Assembly (NCBI GenBank): GCA_934647945.1
Contig: CAKUFK010000008.1
Location: forward strand, 3,815 to 67,814
Direction of reading: 5' to 3'
DNA length: 64,000 nt
DNA from: an uncultured Eubacteriales bacterium
Lineage (GTDB): Bacteria > Bacillota > Clostridia > Oscillospirales > Acutalibacteraceae
In this document: piece by piece, positions 1,011 to 36,209 of the stretch
Numbering within the stretch: position 1 is the stretch's first letter
How the letters are laid out: the number at the start of each line of letters is the position of its first letter
Made by a program: the position numbers and the translations under genes
The notes under the pieces: model-generated
Told to the model about the DNA's origin: nothing
Database searches by the model: none
What the model saw: only the letters and a program-made list of their open reading frames with translations

Positions 1011-2780
1011 CTATCTTTTACGCTCCCGCATTTGCCGGAGCTTTTCCTGTATCTGTTCGGGTGTCAGCTCCGCGGGGCTGTCGAGACCCAGCAGCTGGTT
1101 TTCCTCCCGGATAATGCCGGCATACCGGCGAAGCTCCTCCCGCGGATCGGCACCAGCCCGCTCCCTGGCATCCCGTACCATTCGGGAGAGGTAGCCCATC
1201 CCCTCTTCATCCACATCCCCGGCGAGGAAACCGAGCTCCACCGGCTGCCCGCCCGCCTGCCGTTCCAGGAGACGGCGGTATATATCCTGATTGAAGGGAG
1301 TCACCATCTCATCCGCGGAGAGAAGGCGGCCCGCCTCTGGAAGCAAATCGGGATTGAGAAGCAGAAGTCCGAGCATCGCTTCTTCCGCACTGGCGGCCCG
1401 CACATGGGCCGCCGCTTCGGGGTTGGCCTTTTTGACCAGGCCTTCGGCTTTCCGGACAATGGCCGACATCTGTTTATCCTTCTGCTGCTTCCGGCGTTTT
1501 TCCATCAGGTAGCGCACCTGTTCGAGCAGGGCTTCCTTGGAAACCGACAGTTCCCCCGCCAATTTACCGGCGTACACATCCCGTTCGACAGGGTTCTGCA
1601 GCTCCGCGAGTATCTGCGCGGCGTCCCTCAGATACGCCACCCGGCCGTCCGCCGTGGTCAGGATATGCCGGCGGCCGAGCTCCATCAAACGGTATTCCAC
1701 GTCGTTCGCGGATTTTTCAAGCAGCAGCTTGAAGCGTTCGGGCCCGTTCTTTTTAATGAACTCATCCGGGTCCTTGCCGTCCGGCACCGTGACGACCCGG
1801 ATGTGCAGCCCGGTCTCCCGCAGAAGCCCTATCGCGCGCTGAGCCCCTTTCTGACCGGCCGTGTCGGCGTCGAAGACGAGCACCGCCTCATCGGCATAGC
1901 GCGCGAGCAGACGGGCATGATCGGCGGTGAAGGAGGTGCCGAGCGCCGCCACCGCGTTGGTAAACCCGGCCTGATGCAGCGCAATCACATCCATATACCC
2001 TTCACAGAGGATGAGCTGCCGCCCGCCCGCGGCTTTGGCAAAATTGAGAGCGAAGAGGTTGTTGGTCTTTTTGAACACCAGCGTCTCGCCCGAATTCAGG
2101 TATTTCGGTTTAGAATTGTCGAGCACCCGGCCCCCGAAGGCAATCACGCCTCCCCGGATATCGATGATCGGGATCATCACCCGGTTGCGGAACAGGTCAT
2201 AGAGATGGTTCGGATTGTTCCGGCCCCGGCCGCACAGCCAGGCAGCCGTCAGTTCCTCGTCGTGAAATCCCTTTTTTCGCAGTGAATCCCGCAGAAAATC
2301 GAAACTGTCGGGAGCGTATCCCAGCCCGAAATGACGGATGGTGGCGTCGGTATAGCCGCGGGAATGGTAGTAATCGAGCCCCGCCTTCCCCTCCGGCGCG
2401 TAGAGCAGCGCGTGATAGAGCCGGGCGGCCTCCCGATTGGCCTCAAGAACCCGCAGGCGCATTCGCGACGCCGCGTCGTTCATCTTGTTCTCCGGCATCG
2501 CCATCCCCGCCCGGTCGGCCAGGAATTTGACGGCGTCGAGATAGTCGAGATTTTCGATTTTTTTGATGAAGGTGATGACGTCTCCGCCCGCGCCGCAGCC
2601 GAAGCAGTAAAAGGACGCGGTTTCGGGATAGAGATTGAAAGAGGGGGTCTTTTCCCCATGAAAGGGGCAAAGCCCCACGAGATTGCGCCCCCTCCTTTTG
2701 AGACGGACATAAGAGGAAACGACGCTCTCGATGTCGCTGCGGTCCAGCAGCTCCTGCAAAAACGACTCCGGCAGCGGCAT
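1011..2780 (-). CDS. dnaG: DNA primase DnaG
   Basis: Part of ORF 1011..2873. Zinc-ribbon motif CPFHGEKTPSFNLYPETASFYCFGCGAGGDVITF, then a TOPRIM-like region (EGYMDVIALHQAGF, VLVFDADTAGQKG). Start moved to the ATG at 2780 (MPLPESFLQELL), which is preceded by GGAGGTG. Confidence 0.93.
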   Translation of the reverse strand: MPLPESFLQELLDRSDIESVVSSYVRLKRRGRNLVGLCPFHGEKTPSFNLYPETASFYCFGCGAGGDVITFIKKIENLDYLDAVKFLADRAGMAMPENKMNDAASRMRLRVLEANREAARLYHALLYAPEGKAGLDYYHSRGYTDATIRHFGLGYAPDSFDFLRDSLRKKGFHDEELTAAWLCGRGRNNPNHLYDLFRNRVMIPIIDIRGGVIAFGGRVLDNSKPKYLNSGETLVFKKTNNLFALNFAKAAGGRQLILCEGYMDVIALHQAGFTNAVAALGTSFTADHARLLARYADEAVLVFDADTAGQKGAQRAIGLLRETGLHIRVVTVPDGKDPDEFIKKNGPERFKLLLEKSANDVEYRLMELGRRHILTTADGRVAYLRDAAQILAELQNPVERDVYAGKLAGELSVSKEALLEQVRYLMEKRRKQQKDKQMSAIVRKAEGLVKKANPEAAAHVRAASAEEAMLGLLLLNPDLLPEAGRLLSADEMVTPFNQDIYRRLLERQAGGQPVELGFLAGDVDEEGMGYLSRMVRDARERAGADPREELRRYAGIIREENQLLGLDSPAELTPEQIQEKLRQMRERKR

Positions 2781-2884
2781 CCGATCACCTCCGCTCACGC
2801 TCCCGGCCGCGGCCGGAGCCGCGGGATGGGGTATACTGGAAAAAAACACCGGATTACGGGTATTCTTGCCCAAAAAAGAACTAT

Positions 2885-3898
2885 TTATGTAAAGCCGTCA
2901 GCCTTTACCTCCCAACTGCGGGGGATAAACAGGGCGTGATAGACCTCCAGCGCGTAATTATCGGTCATCCCCGCGATATAATCGCAGACCGCGCGGTGAA
3001 CCCCCTCGTTCTCCCGTATGGCACGGTATTCCGAAGGCAGACGGTCGGGATGCTCCACAAAAAAGGCGAACATGCGGGTGATGAGCCCCTCCACCTTGCT
3101 CTCTTCCCCTTTGGCAACGGGGTTGCGGTAAAGGGATTCGAATAAAAAAGCGTGCAGGCGGTCGAAAGGCTCCTGGATCTCCGGCGCCATCCCGATATCC
3201 TCTCCGCTGTTCTCCACAATGGAGCGCACGAGGGTGTCGATGCGGGTGGTACGGCGGTCCCCCAGCGCCTTCCGGATATCGGCGGGGACATCGGTCTCCC
3301 GGAGCACACCGGCCCGGACCGCGTCGTCGATATCGTGGTTGATATACGCCACCCGATCGGCAAGGCGGACGATCCGGCCCTCGAGCGTCATGGCCGGCGT
3401 GCCGCGGGTATGGCAGCGGATGCCGTCCCGGACCTCGACGGTCAGGTTCAGCCCCCGTCCGTCGTTTTCCAGCCGTTCCACCACCCGCGCGCTCTGTTCG
3501 TAATGCCGGAACCCTCCCTCCATGACAGCGTCGAGAGCCCGCTCCCCCGCATGGCCGAAAGGGGTGTGCCCCAGATCGTGGCCCAGGGAGATCGCCTCGG
3601 TCAAATCCTCATTCAGGCGCAGCGCCCGCGCGATGGTACGGGCGATCTGGGATACCTCGAGGGTATGGGTCAGGCGGGTACGGTAATGATCCCCTTCGGG
3701 CGACAGGAAAACCTGCGTTTTATGCTTGAGACGGCGGAACGCTTTCGAATGCAGGATGCGATCCCGGTCCCGCTGATAAGCGGGCCGATAGGCGCAGGGT
3801 TCCTCTTCCCGGTCCCGGCCCTTGGAACAGGCCGACAAAGCAGCGCGGGGAGACAACACGATCCGTTCGACTTCCTCCTGGCGTTCCCGTGCCGTCAT
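2885..3898 (-). CDS. dGTP triphosphohydrolase-like HD-domain protein
   Basis: Part of ORF 2885..4141. HD motifs: RLTHTLEVSQIARTIARAL and LGHDLGHTPFGHAGE. Start set at ATG 3898 (MTARERQEE), which has an upstream GGACGAGGAA. The longer ORF start has no RBS. Confidence 0.85.
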   Translation of the reverse strand: MTARERQEEVERIVLSPRAALSACSKGRDREEEPCAYRPAYQRDRDRILHSKAFRRLKHKTQVFLSPEGDHYRTRLTHTLEVSQIARTIARALRLNEDLTEAISLGHDLGHTPFGHAGERALDAVMEGGFRHYEQSARVVERLENDGRGLNLTVEVRDGIRCHTRGTPAMTLEGRIVRLADRVAYINHDIDDAVRAGVLRETDVPADIRKALGDRRTTRIDTLVRSIVENSGEDIGMAPEIQEPFDRLHAFLFESLYRNPVAKGEESKVEGLITRMFAFFVEHPDRLPSEYRAIRENEGVHRAVCDYIAGMTDNYALEVYHALFIPRSWEVKADGFT

Positions 3899-5053: not shown

Positions 5054-5144
5054 TGGCGGAGAGTTAGGGATTTGAACCCTAGGTACGGGATTACCGTACA
5101 CACGATTTCCAATCGTGCGCCTTCGACCACTCAGCCAACTCTCC
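5054..5144 (-). tRNA. tRNA-Ser (anticodon GGA), long variable arm, CCA encoded
   Basis: The reverse complement is GGAGAGTTGGCTGAGTGGTCGAAGGCGCACGATTGGAAATCGTGTGTACGGTAATCCGTACCTAGGGTTCAAATCCCTAACTCTCCGCCA. It has a 7-bp acceptor stem GGAGAGT/ACTCTCC, anticodon stem CACGA/TCGTG with loop TTGGAAA, and a T-arm TAGGG-TTCAAAT-CCCTA. Confidence 0.9.
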
Positions 5145-5953: not shown

Positions 5954-6976
5954 TCACAGCAGCGGAACGCCGGCAGCCGCGCACTCCTCCGCCATGCCCT
6001 CCGGCCAAAGGGAGGCCTGCACTTCCCCAATATGGGCTTTTCCGAGGAAAAACATGCACAGCCGGGACTGGCCGATCCCCCCGCCGATGGTCTGGGGCAG
6101 TTCGCCGTTCAAAAGCGCTCTCTGGAAAGGAAGCGCGGCCCGCTCCTCGCATCCCGCGTCGGCGAGCTGGCGGCGCAAGGCGTCCGCATCCACCCGGATC
6201 CCCATGGACGAGACCTCGAAGGCCCGGTCCAAAAGCGGATAATAGAAGATCAGATCGCCGTTGAGAGACCAATCGTCGTAATCGGGCGCCCTGCCGTCGT
6301 GCCGGCGCCCGGACCGAAGCGCGCCGCCGATCCCGGTCAGAAAGACCGCGCCGTATTCCCGGGCCGCTTCGGTCTCCCGCTCAGACGGAGACAGAGCGGG
6401 ATAGCGGTCCTCGAGCTCCTGGGTGCTGACGATATGGACGGCCTCAGGAAGCAGGCGCGGCAGGCCCGGGATCCTGTCCGCAACCGCCGCCTCGGTTTCC
6501 TTGAAGACCCGGTAAATCGTCTCCACCGTTTTCCGCAGGTATGCGGGGGACCGGTCTTCGGATCGGATCACCTTTTCCCAGTCCCACTGATCCACATACA
6601 GGGAATGCAGGTTGTCCGTCACCTCGTCCCGGCGGATCGCATTCATATCGGTATAAAGGCCGCTGCCGGCCCGGATCCCATAACGGCCGAGAGCATGCCG
6701 TTTCCACTTGGCCAGGGAGTGGACGATTTCGGCCTTCCGCCCGCCGTCATACCGCATGTCGAAGACGACCGGCCGCTCCACCCCGTTCAGATTATCGTTG
6801 AGCCCGGATTCCGGCCGGACAAACAGCGGCGCGGACACACGGGTCAGGGACAGCGCGTCCGCCAGCCGGTTTTCAAAGGTATCCTTGAGAAACTTGATGG
6901 CCCTTTCGGTTTCGGCAATCCCCAGCTGCGGGCGGTATCCCTTCGGGATTTTGAGCTGATAACGGCTTTCATCCAT
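5954..6976 (-). CDS. asnA: Aspartate--ammonia ligase (asparagine synthetase A)
   Basis: 340 aa. MDESRYQLKIPKGYRPQLGIAETERAIKFLKDTFENRLADALSLTRVSAPLFV and the QSRLCMFFLGKAHIGEV C-terminal motif are typical of AsnA. Confidence 0.92.
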   Translation of the reverse strand: MDESRYQLKIPKGYRPQLGIAETERAIKFLKDTFENRLADALSLTRVSAPLFVRPESGLNDNLNGVERPVVFDMRYDGGRKAEIVHSLAKWKRHALGRYGIRAGSGLYTDMNAIRRDEVTDNLHSLYVDQWDWEKVIRSEDRSPAYLRKTVETIYRVFKETEAAVADRIPGLPRLLPEAVHIVSTQELEDRYPALSPSERETEAAREYGAVFLTGIGGALRSGRRHDGRAPDYDDWSLNGDLIFYYPLLDRAFEVSSMGIRVDADALRRQLADAGCEERAALPFQRALLNGELPQTIGGGIGQSRLCMFFLGKAHIGEVQASLWPEGMAEECAAAGVPLL

Positions 6977-7003
6977 GCTGACGCGACCCCCTCTTGCATG
7001 TAG

Positions 7004-7029
7004 AAAAACGCCCGACTGTTCGTCGAGCG
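7004..7029 (-). terminator. Intrinsic terminator after the 5S rRNA gene
   Basis: Minus-strand RNA CGCUCGAC-GAACA-GUCGGGCG followed by UUUUU. The stem is 8 bp including one G-U pair. Confidence 0.5.
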
Positions 7030-7037
7030 TTCTCCGT

Positions 7038-7153
7038 GTCGGCGCCTGCCTATTTTCCCGGGCCGCTTCCAGCCGAGTATCGTGGGCGCAAATGGGCTTA
7101 ACTGCCGTGTTCGGGATGGGAACGGGTGTACCCCCACCGCCATCGGCACCGAC
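7038..7153 (-). rRNA. rrf: 5S ribosomal RNA (stand-alone copy)
   Basis: The minus strand reads GTCGGTGCCGATGGCGGTGGGGGTACACCCGTTCCCATCCCGAACACGGCAGTTAAGCCCATTTGCGCCCACGATACTCGGCTGGAAGCGGCCCGGGAAAATAGGCAGGCGCCGAC. It carries the universal 5S core, and helix I closes as GTCGGTGCC/GGCGCCGAC. Length is 116 nt. Confidence 0.88.
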
Positions 7154-7203
7154 TGCTTATCGCTGTCCTCCGGGATATCACCGAATTCCAAACGACAAGA
7201 CAC

Positions 7204-7232
7204 AGTATAACACGCTCTTCTCAAAATTGCAA
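7204..7232 (-). promoter_or_regulatory. Sigma-A-type promoter with extended -10, upstream of the 5S gene
   Basis: The minus strand reads TTGCAA-17 nt-TATACT, preceded by TGT (a TGn extended -10). It lies about 50 nt upstream of the 5S 5' end. Confidence 0.45.
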
Positions 7233-7237
7233 GCCTT

Positions 7238-8323
7238 TTATCCAGCCTGCCCTGCAATATGCCCCGAAAACAGCGCCTCGATCGGCTTTATCCGGTCGAC
7301 CCGGCAAAACGAATCCGCCCGTTCCTCGGCCTTGGAGGCGTAATGCCGGCGGGTCTCCTCCGGCAGCATCCGCCGCAGCCCGTCCAGCAGCGCCTCTTCG
7401 CTGTTTTCCGTCACAATGCCGTATTCACCGTCCCCGAGCAGCTCTTTCGCCCCGCATACATTGGTGGTGACGACAGGCTTTCCGAGCAGGACGGCCTCGG
7501 TGGCCGCCACGCTCAGCCCCTCGATAAACGAGGAGCAGACATAAACGTCCGACCGGCTGATAAACCGGTAGGGATTGGTCTGATAGCCCCAAAGCCGGAC
7601 AGAGTCTTCCAGATGATGGGCCCGGATATAGGCCTCCATGTTTTTCCGTTCGTGTCCATCCCCGACAAACCAGAGCTGCTGCCGGACCCCCTCGTCCAAT
7701 AAGGCCTTATGACAGGCGAGCAGGCGCAGGAACCCTTTTTCCGGGCTGAACCGGCCGACGGTGCAGAGGATCGGCGCGTCACGGCGAACCTCCTCCCCGA
7801 TCGGTTCGGACGCGGCCTCCTCGATAGCCTTGTAATCGATCGGGTTGTAGCACAGGATCAGGTCGTCCGGCCGGCCGTACAGCGGCGCAAAGGCCTCCAT
7901 GACTTCGCTGGAAATGAACACCATCTTATCAAACCGCTGGTGTTCCTTCAGATGATCCGTATCCAGCCCATGCATCCACGCGAGCTTGACCGCGCGGCTG
8001 GGCGATTTGGACAGCATCCGTGTCGGCACCCCCGCCTGGAAGGCGATTTCATAGTCATATTCTCTGCGCACCAGCCGCCGGTACAGCCATGTCTGCGGCA
8101 ACAGCGATACCAGATGGGACAGGCCTTTGAAATAGGTCTTGAAAACCGGCTGGACATGGACGCGCGGGTCGATGTGGTACCGGCCCGGATCATAGCGGAA
8201 AAGGACCAGCAGCGTCACGTCGAACCGGTCTTTATCGAGCCCGTTGACGATGTCGACGGCCACCTTATCCACACCGCCCACAAAAAGATGATTGGTCACA
8301 AACAGCAACCGCGTTTTTTCCAT
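7238..8323 (-). CDS. Glycosyltransferase, GT4 (GT-B fold) family
   Basis: Part of ORF 7238..8425. Begins MEKTRLLFVTNHLFVGGVDKV and has the C-terminal motif VCSSFIEGLSVAATEAVLLGKPVVTTNVCGAKELL (EX7E-like). Start at ATG 8323. Confidence 0.85.
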   Translation of the reverse strand: MEKTRLLFVTNHLFVGGVDKVAVDIVNGLDKDRFDVTLLVLFRYDPGRYHIDPRVHVQPVFKTYFKGLSHLVSLLPQTWLYRRLVRREYDYEIAFQAGVPTRMLSKSPSRAVKLAWMHGLDTDHLKEHQRFDKMVFISSEVMEAFAPLYGRPDDLILCYNPIDYKAIEEAASEPIGEEVRRDAPILCTVGRFSPEKGFLRLLACHKALLDEGVRQQLWFVGDGHERKNMEAYIRAHHLEDSVRLWGYQTNPYRFISRSDVYVCSSFIEGLSVAATEAVLLGKPVVTTNVCGAKELLGDGEYGIVTENSEEALLDGLRRMLPEETRRHYASKAEERADSFCRVDRIKPIEALFSGHIAGQAG

Positions 8324-31181: not shown

Positions 31182-31210
31182 TTGAAATTTCGTCCAACAT
31201 GTCTTATACT
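31182..31210 (+). promoter_or_regulatory. Candidate sigma-A promoter at the left edge of the AT-rich segment
   Basis: TTGAAA-17 nt-TATACT. It lies about 240 nt upstream of the ECF sigma gene, so assigning it to that gene is tentative. Confidence 0.3.
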
Positions 31211-31337: not shown

Positions 31338-31389
31338 GTGAAACACTCTCAATTTGCTTTATCGGCCGCCTATATATTCAGTGTTTCAC
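31338..31389. promoter_or_regulatory. Perfect 10-bp inverted repeat GTGAAACACT...AGTGTTTCAC (32-nt spacer) just upstream of the ECF sigma gene
   Basis: Arms at 31338-31347 and 31380-31389. The left arm contains a GAAAC element of the kind seen in ECF -35 boxes. Confidence 0.4.
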
Positions 31390-31447
31390 GATCCATAAAC
31401 GAAGAATAGACGAAATGCATTTCACATTAGAAGTGAGAGGTGATCCA

Positions 31448-32005
31448 ATGGCAGAAGGACCCATGGAAGAAGCCTATATGCGCTTCCTGTCGGGTGAAAT
31501 GGACGCATTCGAAATCATTGTGAAGGAACTGCAGATGCCGCTCATCCACTTCATCAATCGTTACATTGGCAACACATCGATTGCGGAAGACTTGGCAGAG
31601 AACGTGTTTGTGGAAATCCTGCTGCATCGGGACCGGTACAACTTCAAGGTCAAGCTGAAAACGTATTTGTTCACCATCGCGCGGAATACCGCCATCGATT
31701 ATATTCGGAAGAATAAACGGCTCGCTCCGTATGAGGTGGACGAGGATTTCAGCCCGGATACCCGGCTCCATGCGTCACCCGAGGAAGCGTATCTGGCAAA
31801 AGAGCAGCGAGATACGATCGTGGATCTGATCCAAACTGTAAAAGGCGATCAAGGAACCGCACTATACTTGACGTTGGTGGAAAACCTCTCAAACGAAGAA
31901 GCAGCCAGAGTTATGAAGAAGAGCAAGAAACAGATTGAGAATCTGTTGTTTCAGGGCAGACGGAAAATCCGTACTTTAATTGAGAAAGAAGGGATTCTCA
32001 CATGA
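31448..32005 (+). CDS. ECF-type (group 4) sigma-70 family sigma factor
   Basis: Part of ORF 31415..32005. Start at ATG 31448, after GAGAGGTGA. Region 2: IAEDLAENVFVEILLHRDRYNFKVKLKTYLFTIARNTAIDYIRK. Region 4: LYLTLVENLSNEEAARVMKKSKKQIENLLFQGRRKIR. Visibly lower GC than the flanking genes. Confidence 0.85.
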   Translation: MAEGPMEEAYMRFLSGEMDAFEIIVKELQMPLIHFINRYIGNTSIAEDLAENVFVEILLHRDRYNFKVKLKTYLFTIARNTAIDYIRKNKRLAPYEVDEDFSPDTRLHASPEEAYLAKEQRDTIVDLIQTVKGDQGTALYLTLVENLSNEEAARVMKKSKKQIENLLFQGRRKIRTLIEKEGILT

Positions 32006-33102
32006 AAAACACACAACAATTCTGTGAGAGCATCTATCATAAATATGAACTGGCACTGGAAACTAGACGCGAAAAACAACGTGTGCGCTTCATGATCGTA
32101 CAGCGCTCGGCTGCCGCCGCCGCAGTCGTGACGGTGGCGGTGGGTTCCTCTGTATTCATCATCCATCAGAAGGACGGAAAACTGCCTGTCACGCCCGGCG
32201 CTTCCATCTCCGCGTCGAAGGATCCGGCTGGGCGCGCCCTGATCACCACCGTATCGGCGGGGCTGATGGCCGATAATTTTATTCCCAATATGATTCCGCC
32301 TAGCGGAGAGGTGCTATACAGCTCGTCCCTCGATGAGCTGGTGGGCAGCGAGGAGACCGACGGAGCCCTGTTCCGTCTGTCGGTCTCTATCTACGGCGAC
32401 ACGGAGGACGCCAAGGACGGCGTCCGCGCCCAGTGGGAGCAGCAGGGCCTGTCGGTCGAGGATCCGGTTGCTGACGTCCCCGGCGACTGCATCGTCACCG
32501 TTGACAAGGAGCAGATCGACCAGCTCGCCGGCGAAGACTTCGGTATCTTGGCCCGCCTGGCGCCCGCTGTCCGGCCGGAGGGATATGACCGCCGTCTGGG
32601 CGACCTCGCCGCCAACTGGGCCGAAACGGCCGGCGACCAGGATGTGGTAAACGTCATGATCTTTACCGTTTGGGGGAAGGCGTCCTACACTGCCGTGCCC
32701 AATTCCGACCTCTTCCGCGAAGAGGATTTTCTGTCGGCTCTCGAGGGCCTCACCCCTCTGCCCAAGCCGGCTTCGTCCCCGACGGATTCCGCGGAGTCCA
32801 TGGCACTTTTGGAGCAATACGTCGCGAACCAGACAAATATCCGGACTGCCGCCGAGGCTGTCATGAACGATGCGCTCGACGCCCTGTGCGCCCGCGTCGG
32901 CCTGACGAATATCCGTACCAGGCGCGCGGTGTTTGGGATGCCCGAGGCCCCCGCTCCCGGAGAGGCGTTCACCTGGGAGGGACACTGTGAATCCACCGCC
33001 TACATCGACGCCTACGTGACCAAGGCGCAGCTCCTCGCTCTCGCCGAGGACAGCGGTGTGCGGTATGTGCACCTCGTCAGCGAAGGATACGAGCTCAACT
33101 AG
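32002..33102 (+). CDS. Single-pass membrane protein, putative anti-sigma factor with a tandem subtilase-prodomain-like ectodomain
   Basis: 366 aa. Its ATG overlaps the sigma stop (ATGA). It has a ~35-aa cytoplasmic head with no zinc-finger motif, one TM (AAAAAVVTVAVGSSVFII), and a ~310-aa extracytoplasmic part. Two modules end in CIVTVDKEQIDQLAGEDFGILARL and TAYIDAYVTKAQLLALAEDSGVRYVHL. Confidence 0.55.
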   Translation: MKNTQQFCESIYHKYELALETRREKQRVRFMIVQRSAAAAAVVTVAVGSSVFIIHQKDGKLPVTPGASISASKDPAGRALITTVSAGLMADNFIPNMIPPSGEVLYSSSLDELVGSEETDGALFRLSVSIYGDTEDAKDGVRAQWEQQGLSVEDPVADVPGDCIVTVDKEQIDQLAGEDFGILARLAPAVRPEGYDRRLGDLAANWAETAGDQDVVNVMIFTVWGKASYTAVPNSDLFREEDFLSALEGLTPLPKPASSPTDSAESMALLEQYVANQTNIRTAAEAVMNDALDALCARVGLTNIRTRRAVFGMPEAPAPGEAFTWEGHCESTAYIDAYVTKAQLLALAEDSGVRYVHLVSEGYELN

Positions 33103-33260
33103 GCTGAAAAAGCCGTATGTCTCAGGCCGGTGCGGGAACGTACCGGCTTGCGGCGTGTCCGGCTTTTCGATAAAATCCGACAGAAATCGGGAGAGGGGGC
33201 GGCCTATGCGGTAGCGGGAAACGGCATACAGGCAACTATAGAAAGGGGAAGTTCTAAAAC

Positions 33261-35054
33261 ATGAAGTGGAAAACCAATTGGAAAAAGGGCCTGCGAAACG
33301 GGATCTGCATCGGCACGCTGCTGCTGTTCCTGTTCCAGTTCGCGGCGATGGCGCAGGAGGGCGGCACCGCTGCCCAGGAGGAGCCGTCGAAGATCTCCCC
33401 CCTGCTGCTGGAGGCCTTCGCCCAGCAGCCCGCGCCCATGAGCCTGGACGCCCAGGCCGAAGCCCCGACCGTGCCCACCGCGGTGTGGATCACCGATACC
33501 GACCTCACGGAAGCCGCGGCCGCGGCCGCGGCGAGCTCCGGCCTGCTCTCCACCGCCCCGCTGGCGGCGCCCCTCAGCAGCCTGGAAGCCTCGGCCACCA
33601 TGCCGATCTCCACCGCGCCCACCAATGAAGAAAACCCCGACGCAGTGCAGGACTACATAGAGGCCAAGCGTCTCGCGTCCCGGACACTGTACGCCGAGCA
33701 GAACGAGGCCTTTGCGGCGGACCATTTCGACCAGGAGGATATCCTCTACATCAGCCAGTACTCCCCTCTCGTCCTGGTCAACGTCACTCTGGATGAGGTG
33801 TACGACCTGACCCGGTATGACGAGGTCTCCTACCTGGATCACTACCAGTCCGGCGCGGAGCTGCAACTGACCAACGCCGTCAGCGCTTCCCGCGCCGACT
33901 ATGTGCGGGACACCAAGAACTACAAGGGCGGCGGCATCAAGGTCGGCATATTGGACGGCCACATCACTAACACGGCCGGCCTGCCCTCCTCCATCACGGT
34001 CAAGCCCGAAAACGTCTATAACTACGAGAATTGCATGCATGCGAAGCGGGTCGCTAAAATCATCATGACCATGGCCCCCAACGCCACCTATTACGCCGCG
34101 TGGGCGGACAATTACATCACCAACATCGAATGGCTCCTCTCCCAGGGGGTCAACGTCATCAACATCAGCGGCGAACTGGGAGCCCATTATCCAAATACCA
34201 TCACCTTCGCCACCACCTGGCTCGACCACGTCGCCTTCAACCACGACGTACATCTGGTGCTCGCGGCCGGAAACAGCGGTTCGGCCGGCGTCAACTCCGC
34301 CGGCATGGCCTTCAACGCCATCACCGTCGGGTCGTACAACGACCACAACGGCACCAACACCTCCAATTTCACTGTATCGAGCTTCTCCTCCTACATGCCC
34401 ACGAAACTCAACGATGTCGCCTCCAAGCCCGACATCCTGGCGCCGGGGGAGAACATCTCCATCTCGGTGGACGGGACGACGGTCGAGGCAGACGGCTCCA
34501 GCTTCGCCGCCCCCTTTGTCACCGGCACGGTCGTCTATATGTGCCAGGCCAATACCTCGATGAAGATCCGGCAGGACGCCGTAAAGGCCGCGCTCGCCGC
34601 CTCCTGCTTCGACGTCCACTACACGCCGTCGGAGACCGGCTACCGGACATGGGGGAACGGTGCGCTGAACTCGCGTTACGCCTGGACGGTGGCGAAGGAC
34701 AGCCAGTTCCGTTATGGCATCATCACCAGCACCGATCCGGCTACCTTTACTTATACCTTCTCGACCTCCTCGGCCTCCACCTATGAATTTGTGGCGCTCA
34801 CCAATCTGCGTTATTCGAAGTTCTCCTCCGGCGACCATACGGGAGATCCGGTTCATGACGGGTATCCGCCCGATCTGGATCTGAGAGTGTACAACAACTC
34901 CACCAACGCCCTGGTTGCGAGCAGCACCATGGGAACCTGCTGGAACGTAGAAAAGGTCGGCTTCCCCACCGGCGGTGCCAACACCTTCCGCATCGAGGTG
35001 ACACACGCAGGGGAACGCAGCCAAAACGGCTATTTTGGCGTAGCCTGGTATTAA
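33261..35054 (+). CDS. Secreted subtilisin-like serine peptidase (family S8) with an N-terminal prodomain-like region and a C-terminal beta-sandwich (PPC/P-domain-like)
   Basis: 597 aa. Signal peptide MKWKTNWKKGLRNGICIGTLLLFLFQFAAMAQE. Catalytic motifs: VGILDG (Asp), MHAKRVAKII (His), AAGNSGSAG (oxyanion Asn) and DGSSFAAPFVTG (Ser). The prodomain-like end LVLVNVTLDEVYDLTRYDEVSYLD precedes the catalytic domain. Confidence 0.88.
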   Translation: MKWKTNWKKGLRNGICIGTLLLFLFQFAAMAQEGGTAAQEEPSKISPLLLEAFAQQPAPMSLDAQAEAPTVPTAVWITDTDLTEAAAAAAASSGLLSTAPLAAPLSSLEASATMPISTAPTNEENPDAVQDYIEAKRLASRTLYAEQNEAFAADHFDQEDILYISQYSPLVLVNVTLDEVYDLTRYDEVSYLDHYQSGAELQLTNAVSASRADYVRDTKNYKGGGIKVGILDGHITNTAGLPSSITVKPENVYNYENCMHAKRVAKIIMTMAPNATYYAAWADNYITNIEWLLSQGVNVINISGELGAHYPNTITFATTWLDHVAFNHDVHLVLAAGNSGSAGVNSAGMAFNAITVGSYNDHNGTNTSNFTVSSFSSYMPTKLNDVASKPDILAPGENISISVDGTTVEADGSSFAAPFVTGTVVYMCQANTSMKIRQDAVKAALAASCFDVHYTPSETGYRTWGNGALNSRYAWTVAKDSQFRYGIITSTDPATFTYTFSTSSASTYEFVALTNLRYSKFSSGDHTGDPVHDGYPPDLDLRVYNNSTNALVASSTMGTCWNVEKVGFPTGGANTFRIEVTHAGERSQNGYFGVAWY

Positions 35055-35110: not shown

Positions 35111-35570
35111 ATGGGGCGATTCAACTAAAATACATATATATTTTTAGTGATATATACAAAACCGAGCAATTTCGTCATTTTTGGATTATATTGTCAGTGC
35201 TATTTCTCAATTAAACGAATAATTCGCGGAATGATAAACATTCCGGGGTTCGGAGACAGGTTATGGAGATGCTGTTTTCCACGTTGGGGATAGGCCGGCG
35301 GAAGGATGCCAGTCATCTGTGCATCCGCAAACAAAAACGGTAAGATGTTTGCAACCGGCTTTCGAGTTTCCTCTTAATGTGCGGATTAAGAGATCGATAA
35401 TCCTTGTGGGAAAACAGTCTGGTGGCGGATTCCATGTCGGCGGATGATGTTTCACCTCTATAACCTGTCTTTCCGATTTCCTTGATGAAAATCGTTTCAT
35501 CTAAAATGGAAGGCCGATAGTGCCTGCTCGGCAGGTATTCATTTTTTACGCTGCAAAAGGGGTGCCGAAC

Positions 35571-36209
35571 ATGAACACAAAGCCGCTGTACAATACCGAA
35601 TTGTCCAACCCTCCCGCCGCACTGATCCGATTGACAGATATCTGGGAAAACGACATGGTTCCTAACCAATCACCGGGGCGCAAACGCTCGCCGGGGCGCA
35701 ATGCCAAAGTGAGGCAATGCATCGATATACCATTGGCCATGGAACTGCGTGGGGCGAGCCAGTACGCAACCAAAGTGGTACGGGTATGCACCGTGCTGGA
35801 CAATATGACCAGCCGCGCTCAAAATCAAGAGCTCTTTCGTGAAATTGAACTGATCACATTGTTAGATGGCTATGATCTTCCGGAAGAACAGGAGCTTGTG
35901 CCTTTGTCGGTTCATCAATGGGACATCCCCCTATCCCATTCCGAGTGGGAGAACAAATATAAAGACATCCCCTATCGGATTTATATCCGGATCGGTGAGT
36001 ACATTGGATTGGATCTGGATACATTATGCAAAAGGCACCGCATTTCAGGCAAAAGACACTATGCATTGAATTTGCCACAGCCGTCGGCACCGAACTGGAA
36101 GAGCGCACTCGGCATCACAGCGTATGTCGAGGCGGAACTGACCAAGCAGCAGATTCAGCGTATTGCCGTCGACAAGCGCGTTCGGCTGATCCAAGGCGTG
36201 GAGCCCTGA
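35571..36209 (+). CDS. Hypothetical leaderless protein whose C-terminus is paralogous to the anti-sigma ectodomain module
   Basis: Part of ORF 35520..36209. Start at ATG 35571 (MNTKPLYNTE), after AAAGGGGTG. No signal peptide or TM. The C-terminus ITAYVEAELTKQQIQRIAVDKRVRLIQG aligns with STAYIDAYVTKAQLLALAEDSGVRYVHL, with 11 identities in 28 by eye. Confidence 0.5.
   Translation: MNTKPLYNTELSNPPAALIRLTDIWENDMVPNQSPGRKRSPGRNAKVRQCIDIPLAMELRGASQYATKVVRVCTVLDNMTSRAQNQELFREIELITLLDGYDLPEEQELVPLSVHQWDIPLSHSEWENKYKDIPYRIYIRIGEYIGLDLDTLCKRHRISGKRHYALNLPQPSAPNWKSALGITAYVEAELTKQQIQRIAVDKRVRLIQGVEP

Follow-up and report, generated by a model that had tools for sequence, protein, structure and literature searches.

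What restrains an extracytoplasmic function (ECF) sigma factor when the gene that follows its own encodes a membrane protein of no recognized family? ECF sigma factors and their anti-sigma partners are the third major mode of bacterial signal transduction, and a class I anti-sigma domain (ASDI) is encoded near only about one third of ECF sigmas. To our knowledge, both the sensor and the signal are unknown for most ECF pairs of gut Clostridia. Such a gene pair lies in a 64-kb stretch of DNA from an uncultured Eubacteriales bacterium (contig CAKUFK010000008.1), hereafter the window. The second gene of the pair, an open reading frame (ORF) that we call P, starts within the last codons of the sigma gene. 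Judged by sequence and gene context, P is probably the cognate, membrane-anchored anti-sigma factor of this sigma. The features that bear on this question are as follows (+, forward strand).

31448–32005 (+): ECF sigma gene, 185 residues from the ATG at 31448; the mechanical ORF starts at 31415.

32002–33102 (+): P, 366 residues, a single-pass membrane protein and candidate anti-sigma factor.

32002–32106 (+): cytoplasmic head of P, residues 1–35, the presumed sigma-binding segment.

32107–32169 (+): transmembrane (TM) segment of P, residues 36–56 (SAAAAAVVTVAVGSSVFIIH), Kyte–Doolittle maximum 2.1.

The 310-residue ectodomain of P is C-terminal to the TM segment.

Coupling of P to the ECF sigma gene

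The upstream gene product has regions 2 and 4 only (Pfam Sigma70_r2, 2e-15; Sigma70_r4_2, 2.3e-6) and scores 78.6 bits against TIGR02937, above the cutoff of 42.9, which places it among the ECF (group 4) sigmas. It reaches no specific ECF equivalog; its top score, 90 bits for the SigM subfamily, is below the cutoff of 148. We set its start at the ATG at 31448 because its orthologues are called at 185 residues. The ATG of P overlaps the stop codon of the sigma gene by 4 nucleotides (ATGA, 32002–32005), and this coupling by overlap is kept across all orthologous loci of the window clade.

Does the coupling extend beyond the window clade? To address this question we examined the relatives of P. 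A word-indexed search returned 24 homologues, all of them orthologues or fragments, none named and none with a Pfam domain; when 1.84 billion representatives were searched exhaustively with a profile, 37 proteins scored E <= 1e-3. On these sequence comparisons the ectodomain of P defines a small unannotated family. Its members keep a module A, a linker L-A-x-P-x-R-x-x-G-Y, a module B and the closing pattern TK.E.L.LA.D.D[VI][KR]. They differ at the N-terminus, of which there are three types: a short head and TM segment as in P (e.g. MKSNAEFLSAVLAKYEKRRIERRRR and MRDEQEFIRYVFERYDAFRRRRAKRRR); a longer head of 45–60 residues and a TM segment; and a signal peptide of the lipoprotein type that ends in Cys and leaves no part of the protein in the cytoplasm (P0034, P0038, P0040, P0041 and P0056). 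A locus scan of genome contigs recovered only three P loci, all of the window clade and labelled uncultured Ruminococcaceae (gut metagenome-assembled genomes), and a scan of metagenome contigs with a family alignment gave no confirmed relative.

In all six lineages in which they could be placed (the window clade, L007, L011, L015, L018 and L019), the TM-anchored members lie directly after an ECF sigma gene. Where the upstream gene of a lipoprotein-type member can be read (L013, L016, L017), it is not a sigma gene; the contig of P0034 (L014) is too short to show the upstream gene. The individual loci are these.

L007, P0036: TM-anchored; 4-nucleotide overlap with the sigma gene.

L011, P0059 and a second, full-length copy: TM-anchored; after the sigma gene.

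L015, P0049; L018, P0039; L019, P0043: TM-anchored; after the sigma gene.

L013, P0040: lipoprotein-type; 20 nucleotides after a gene with Peptidase_S8 (S8) and PPC domains.

L017, P0041: lipoprotein-type; preceded by an AraC regulator gene.

L016, P0056: lipoprotein-type; between a MazF-like gene and another family member.

The adjacent, co-oriented ECF sigma is thus a property of the window clade and of five distant TM-anchored lineages. A first-pass annotation had proposed P as an anti-sigma candidate, and it is this distribution, together with the lack of sigma linkage in the lipoprotein forms, that now supports the proposal.

Two of these loci show further arrangements of the family. In L011 the members after the sigma gene are in tandem, a truncated one (6001–6600; head, TM segment and module A; 199 residues) followed by a full-length one (6539–7756). 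In L016, P0056 (484–2301; 605 residues) contains the two-module unit twice, the next family member is at 2364–3377, and the MazF/PemK toxin gene upstream is on the opposite strand.

How is the sigma linkage related to the head? Short-head members pair with sigmas that are 36–41% identical to the window sigma. Long-head members pair with sigmas only 20–28% identical to it, no closer than an unrelated ECF sigma that is also encoded on L015. The head type therefore follows the sigma clade. Conservation within P points the same way. Among 20 orthologues, 47–100% identical overall, 15 of the 35 head positions are invariant (43%), as are 12 of the 21 positions of the TM segment (57%) and 13 of 19 in the inter-module linker (68%), while modules A and B have only 12–21% invariant positions, well below all three. 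Since sigma linkage, the match of head type to sigma clade and conservation agree, there is strong contextual evidence that head and TM segment form the sigma-controlling part of these proteins, and that the ectodomain is a portable extracytoplasmic module. The conservation of the TM segment (QRSAAAAAVVTVAVG.SV) may also reflect recognition by a protease or a specific partner within the membrane.

Topology and cytoplasmic head of P

P has one hydrophobic segment, at about residues 36–56 (Kyte–Doolittle). Residues 1–35 are net basic (8 K+R against 4 D+E), which fits the positive-inside bias, and P is oriented N-in/C-out with a single TM segment, the topology of a membrane anti-sigma. That the modules of the family are extracytoplasmic is shown by the lipoprotein-type relatives, in which a signal peptide replaces head and TM segment.

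What kind of head is this? It is predicted to form an amphipathic helix at residues 4–21 followed by a basic stretch (AlphaFold2), with the helix at a predicted local distance difference test score (pLDDT) of 34–44. The pre-membrane part contains a single Cys (C8) and a single His (H13), and a regular-expression search of P found no H-x3-C-x2-C motif, the signature that spans helices 2 and 3 of zinc-binding anti-sigma (ZAS) domains, so that P falls outside the ZAS definition. It falls outside the class I definition as well: its 35-residue cytoplasmic part is below the 50-residue minimum, taken from PMC7406223, for the N-terminal four-helix domain, and it has no anti-sigma match in Pfam or NCBIfam. 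RsgI_N (PF12791) was not found either, P having no Pfam match at E <= 1; NCBIfam gives two weak matches only, far under their cutoffs. The first-pass annotation had described a cytoplasmic part of about 35 residues without a zinc motif, and an ectodomain; the N-terminus is as it was quoted there, and the empty motif search, the single hydrophobic segment and the N-in charge bias all agree with that description.

The ectodomain fold

What does the ectodomain look like? A full-length AlphaFold2 model of P, built on the 20 orthologues, has a predicted template modelling score (pTM) of 0.67 and is confident over residues 80 to about 360 (pLDDT blocks of 75–94). It divides the ectodomain into two modules and a linker.

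32299–32559 (+): module A, residues 100–186, with the predicted order beta-alpha-beta-beta-alpha-beta (strands 123–131, 151–153, 163–168 and 180–186; helices 135–147 and 169–174; pLDDT 79–91).

32557–32610 (+): inter-module linker LAPAVRPEGYDRRLGDLA, residues 186–203, the most conserved stretch of the whole family.

32614–33075 (+): module B, residues 205–358, with the same predicted order and a long helical insertion (strands 215–224, 304–312, 330–340 and 355–358; helices 240–247 plus 264–299, and 341–348).

DSSP assignments on the models give this beta-alpha-beta-beta-alpha-beta order for both modules, which makes them ferredoxin-like, and module B modelled alone (pLDDT 85.6, pTM 0.81) keeps its topology. 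The linker is modelled as a loop (pLDDT 68). Its residues L186, R191, G194 and Y195 are invariant in 17 distant relatives, lipoprotein forms included.

A Foldseek search of the PDB gave no significant match, the whole model reaching an E-value of 3.6e-3 at best and module B one of 0.11. The lists consist mostly of ferredoxin-like folds at weak E-values (PII, ACT including that of aspartate kinase, Cas6, RRM, acylphosphatase, IsdG/YgiN-like barrels and ribosomal S6), and the family profile run against all PDB sequences returned spurious TM or low-complexity matches only. The best whole-model matches were tandem ferredoxin-like or ACT-type pairs (the acetohydroxyacid synthase regulatory subunit 6u9d, and Cas6) which, like P, have two consecutive beta-alpha-beta-beta-alpha-beta units. 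At TM-scores of 0.18–0.25 and 10–13% identity, however, this is a likeness of fold class only, and unlike P these proteins are cytoplasmic and of unrelated function. We conclude that, as modelled, the fold class of the ectodomain is clear (ferredoxin-like), and that it has no specific solved relative.

Are the two modules duplicates of one another?

If both modules have the same layout, did one arise from the other? The first-pass annotation had suggested an internal duplication and named four sequence elements, and all four map onto matching elements of the two modules: LSVSIYGD and VNVMIFTVWG are the beta1 strands of A and B, respectively, and the closing elements CIVTVDKEQIDQLAGEDFGILARL and TAYIDAYVTKAQLLALAEDSGVRYVHL are beta3-alpha2-beta4 of modules A and B, respectively. 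The common layout of the modules is real. Their common descent is plausible and statistically not secured, as the following comparisons show.

Pairwise alignment of the ectodomain halves is at chance (z = 0.3–0.6 against shuffles). With orthologue profiles, the sole hhalign match is VTVDKEQIDQLAGED against AYVTKAQLLALAEDS, at P = 0.0035–0.005 and 7–9% probability. When distant relatives are added, the same region is matched over 24–25 columns at P = 9e-5 (59%) or 3.6e-4 (37%). In the controls, one column shuffle in 150 scored as high as the real profiles, and with profiles reversed P was 0.2–0.5.

Alternatively, A and B have separate origins as ferredoxin-like domains, and the L-A-x-[ED]-D helix–strand motif that they share is convergent or coincidental. 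The pairwise z below 1 and the short profile match, of about 25 columns and at most 59% probability, are what such an origin would give, and the Foldseek lists themselves show that ferredoxin-like folds are among the commonest. On the other hand, the motif of the original claim is the top match in every alignment variant, and a score that so few shuffles reach would have to be chance. The identical element order of the modules would likewise have to be coincidence, as would the recurrence of the post-module GY[DS]R..SD motif at the C-terminus of some relatives; in P0048, for example, GYDRKISD follows module A and the C-terminus has GYDRLSD. We regard independent origins as somewhat less likely than not. 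What stands of the duplication claim is therefore the agreement of predicted fold and layout, with moderate support from profile–profile comparison; support from pairwise comparison does not materialize.

A candidate promoter, Q and its leader

Which genes might the sigma transcribe? To address this question we examined the intergenic regions of the locus, in which the following features lie.

31182–31210 (+): housekeeping-type promoter TTGAAA-N17-TATACT upstream of the sigma operon, with 10 of 12 consensus matches, conserved in orthologues.

31380–31406 (+): promoter-like motif AGTG-N15-ACGAAGAA, ending 42 nucleotides upstream of the sigma start.

35196–35222 (+): second motif copy AGTG-N15-ACGAATAA, immediately upstream of the Q leader.

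35226–35540 (+): Q leader, about 300 nucleotides, conserved and apparently structured, with a terminator-like hairpin at 35519–35539 and a T run.

35571–36209 (+): Q, 212 residues, a soluble paralogue of the linker (helix) and module B of P.

The pattern AGTG-N15-ACGAA[G/T]AA occurs at these two sites only in 64 kb, even with one mismatch allowed, and the AGTG-N15-ACGAA motif is kept at both places in diverged orthologous loci. It is thus a candidate for the promoter type of the ECF sigma, which would imply autoregulation, with Q as a further target. A canonical ECF promoter (GAAC...CGT) was also sought upstream of the sigma gene and of the S8 gene, and none convincing or conserved was found. 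Between the motif and the ribosome-binding site of the sigma gene, a perfect 12-nucleotide palindrome (31412–31423, +; GAAATGCATTTC) shows no variation among six orthologous loci and is a possible operator.

The relation of Q to P is clear: pairwise z = 11, an hhalign probability of 98% (E = 1.3e-13, 147 columns) and a match to the family hidden Markov model at E = 1e-11. Q is present in every orthologous locus. It has no hydrophobic or TM segment and no signal peptide, and is a soluble copy of an extracytoplasmic module.

The Q leader retains long invariant blocks, among them GATTCC.TGTCGGCGGATGA, although the proteins of the locus are only about 50% identical. An RNAalifold prediction from five sequences has 69 pairs, and compensatory changes occur at 16. 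The predicted pairing includes a long closing helix (35256–35268 with 35456–35468, and flanks) and inner helices with CG<->AU swaps. The leader has no Rfam match at E <= 1, and an exact-pattern scan of metagenome contigs found it at five loci, all of them the same syntenic locus of the window clade.

A model for signalling through P

If P is an anti-sigma factor, how would it work? Oriented N-in/C-out, P would hold the sigma at the membrane by its 35-residue head, the amphipathic helix and basic juxtamembrane stretch. The ectodomain, two ferredoxin-like modules joined by the invariant loop LAPxxRPEGYDRRLGDLA, would be the sensor of an extracytoplasmic cue. Upon the signal the ectodomain would be removed and P then cleaved within its conserved Ala-rich TM segment (regulated intramembrane proteolysis), so freeing the sigma. 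The freed sigma would transcribe from AGTG-N15-ACGAA promoters, and with them its own operon and Q. The two sites of cleavage or recognition would most naturally be sought in the invariant loop, modelled as flexible, and in the Ala-rich TM segment.

Several points weigh against this model. P has no sequence similarity to any described anti-sigma domain (Pfam, NCBIfam and PDB sequences), and its head offers only one confidently predictable helix, at low pLDDT in the model. Both the binding of the sigma and the proteolytic release of P are inferred. The ectodomain also occurs as free lipoproteins and so has a function independent of sigma control. Finally, the promoter motif was derived from two sites of the window, and its independent support is orthologue conservation alone.

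What role might be played by the subtilase?

Downstream of P lies the gene of a secreted protease.

33261–35054 (+): secreted subtilase (Peptidase_S8), 597 residues; PF00082, 65 bits against a cutoff of 21.8.

This protein, S8, has an N-terminal hydrophobic, signal-like segment (residues 13–31) and a C-terminal beta-rich domain. As read from the alignment, its Asp/His/Ser set looks intact (motifs ILDGH, HAKR and GSSFAAP), as in a peptidase of family S8. In all contigs of the window clade examined the order is PG_binding/SpoIID-like genes, a SpoVB/MurJ-like gene, sigma, P, Peptidase_S8 and Q (about 212–215 residues), with RNase R and SecG on the other strand beyond Q.

The segment between P and S8 has features of its own. 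At 33125–33169 and 33206–33214 (+) are GCCGG/CCGGC arms, three in all and conserved, with a T run after them; they could form alternative hairpins and may constitute an attenuator. Also conserved is a mini-ORF of two codons, ATG-NNN-TAG, which lies about 45 nucleotides ahead of the S8 start and has a Shine–Dalgarno-like sequence of its own.

Could the ectodomain be a partner of S8, as its substrate, tether or propeptide-like inhibitor, with S8 acting as the site-1 protease or being the activity that is sensed? This refines the anti-sigma reading and does not exclude it. S8 is kept directly downstream of P in every orthologous locus, down to 47% P identity. In an unrelated lineage (L013), the S8+PPC gene that ends 20 nucleotides before P0040 encodes an S8 of the same subfamily (32% identity to the window S8 over 250 residues, with a shared C-terminal YFG[VL]AW[YW]). 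Yet S8 is nearby in only two of the seven lineages with readable flanks, the window clade and L013, and is not found nearby in L011, L015, L016, L017 or L018. The adjacency of S8 to the family is thus suggestive, not general.

The modules themselves were also compared with subtilase propeptides. Both are alpha/beta sandwiches of beta-alpha-beta-beta-alpha-beta order, and the closing helix–strand motif of the modules (TK.Q.L.LA.D..V.YV) resembles the propeptide end (...L..D P.V.YVE), in a family with S8 adjacent in two lineages. The invariant exposed loop ends in G-Y, and this Tyr would be a plausible P1 residue for a subtilase. In contrast, some 75 additional residues, with a helix of 36 residues among them, are inserted in module B. 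The propeptide family Inhibitor_I9 (PF05922; gathering threshold 21.2 bits) has no match in P and only sub-threshold matches in two of 17 relatives (best 17.9 bits, E = 0.005). No protease prodomain is in the top 50 of the Foldseek PDB lists, for the whole model or for module B. An hhalign comparison with a provisional sequence of the subtilisin BPN' propeptide, itself no more than a lead, aligned 18 residues at P = 0.03–0.11. Nor does Q, the paralogue of module B, have an export signal. Homology of the modules to subtilase propeptides is not demonstrated, and P should not be filed as Inhibitor_I9; homology of module B to the N-terminal region of S8 was considered as well and rejected (hhalign P = 0.21). 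On balance we think a partnership of ectodomain and S8 unlikely.

A more elaborate form of this proposal would make the ectodomain a membrane-tethered, propeptide-like decoy or substrate of S8, with subtilase site-1 cleavage at or near RPEGY preceding the intramembrane cleavage, and with a sigma output that includes Q, which would be gated in addition by its undescribed structured leader. It would be a bacterial counterpart of the eukaryotic cascade from the site-1 protease (S1P, a subtilase) to the site-2 protease (S2P), and we hold it to be very improbable.

Is P an anti-sigma factor at all? That it is instead a cell-surface protein merely co-transcribed with, or regulated by, a sigma that is controlled otherwise (an envelope or sporulation-related factor, for example) would suit the lipoprotein-type members, which work without any sigma, the very short head that matches no known anti-sigma family, and the neighbours of cell-wall or sporulation type (SpoIID/PG_binding proteins, the SpoVB/MurJ-like gene), but it is distinctly improbable in view of six out of six TM-anchored lineages being sigma-adjacent, several with stop/start overlap, of a cytoplasmic head and TM segment that are the best conserved parts after the linker, and of a head type that follows the sigma clade.

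Other features of the window and significance

At some distance from the locus, the window carries a 5S rRNA gene and, about 2 kb from it, a tRNA gene.

7037–7153 (−): 5S rRNA gene, 89 bits; no 16S or 23S rRNA match was found anywhere in the window.

5054–5144 (−): tRNA-Ser(GGA).

What might be learned from the P locus? It defines a compact, unannotated family of putative sensors, two ferredoxin-like modules and an invariant loop, that serves both as the ectodomain of candidate anti-sigmas and as free lipoproteins. It presents a minimal, non-zinc, putative sigma-binding head of about 35 residues, and provides a candidate promoter motif with a small candidate regulon (the sigma operon and Q) as well as a testable link to a secreted subtilase. 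Should it be true that a single helix silences an ECF sigma, the head could usefully serve as a minimal building block in synthetic orthogonal sigma switches. Should the subtilase link hold, S8 would represent a new class of site-1 protease in bacterial regulated proteolysis.

Comparison with known systems

How does P compare with the membrane anti-sigmas already described? For RsiW, RsiV and RsgI, removal of the ectodomain followed by intramembrane cleavage is established in Firmicutes (PMC4183432, PMC10328401). As with P, the gene of each directly follows an ECF sigma gene and is coupled to it; the proteins, again like P, are N-in and single-pass, with a sensor (in P a putative one) outside the cell and a TM segment rich in small residues. 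Unlike them, P has no class I domain, zinc motif or RsgI_N, and its head is of 35 residues rather than about 80–90. Its ectodomain is also unrelated to the lysozyme-binding domain of RsiV and to the carbohydrate-binding domains of RsgI.

A second comparison is with systems in which a conserved subtilase gene lies near an ECF sigma. The ECF54-type contexts have subtilase, carboxypeptidase and CHAT neighbours, and synteny alone, without experiments, has led to the proposal that the protease there is regulatory (PMC8999054). The window shares the subtilase gene near the sigma. That proposal, however, concerns systems without an anti-sigma, whereas in the window a membrane anti-sigma candidate stands between sigma and subtilase.

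One parallel to the head of P may be CnrY, a class II anti-sigma. Heads shorter than 50 residues are treated as possible (divergent) class II, CnrY-like domains (PMC7406223). As is presumed for P, CnrY has a very short sigma-binding region without zinc, and the length of the P head is compatible with class II, a class that is defined by the structure of the complex. CnrY contacts sigma4 and sigma2 with two helices, whereas P has one predicted helix (4–21) and a basic stretch. The two share no sequence similarity and come from different phyla, and the sensor of P would be its built-in ectodomain rather than a partner such as CnrX. In size, then, the head of P is more like a minimal head of class II than like the zinc-binding, four-helix domain of class I. 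Since single-pass putative anti-sigmas with undescribed domains are also common (PMC7826278), both the short head and the undescribed sensor have precedents in the literature, and the first-pass annotation overstated its case in calling the architecture unusual. We conclude that P belongs to a common type of bacterial signalling device, of which it is an uncharacterised variant, and does not represent a new kind of system.

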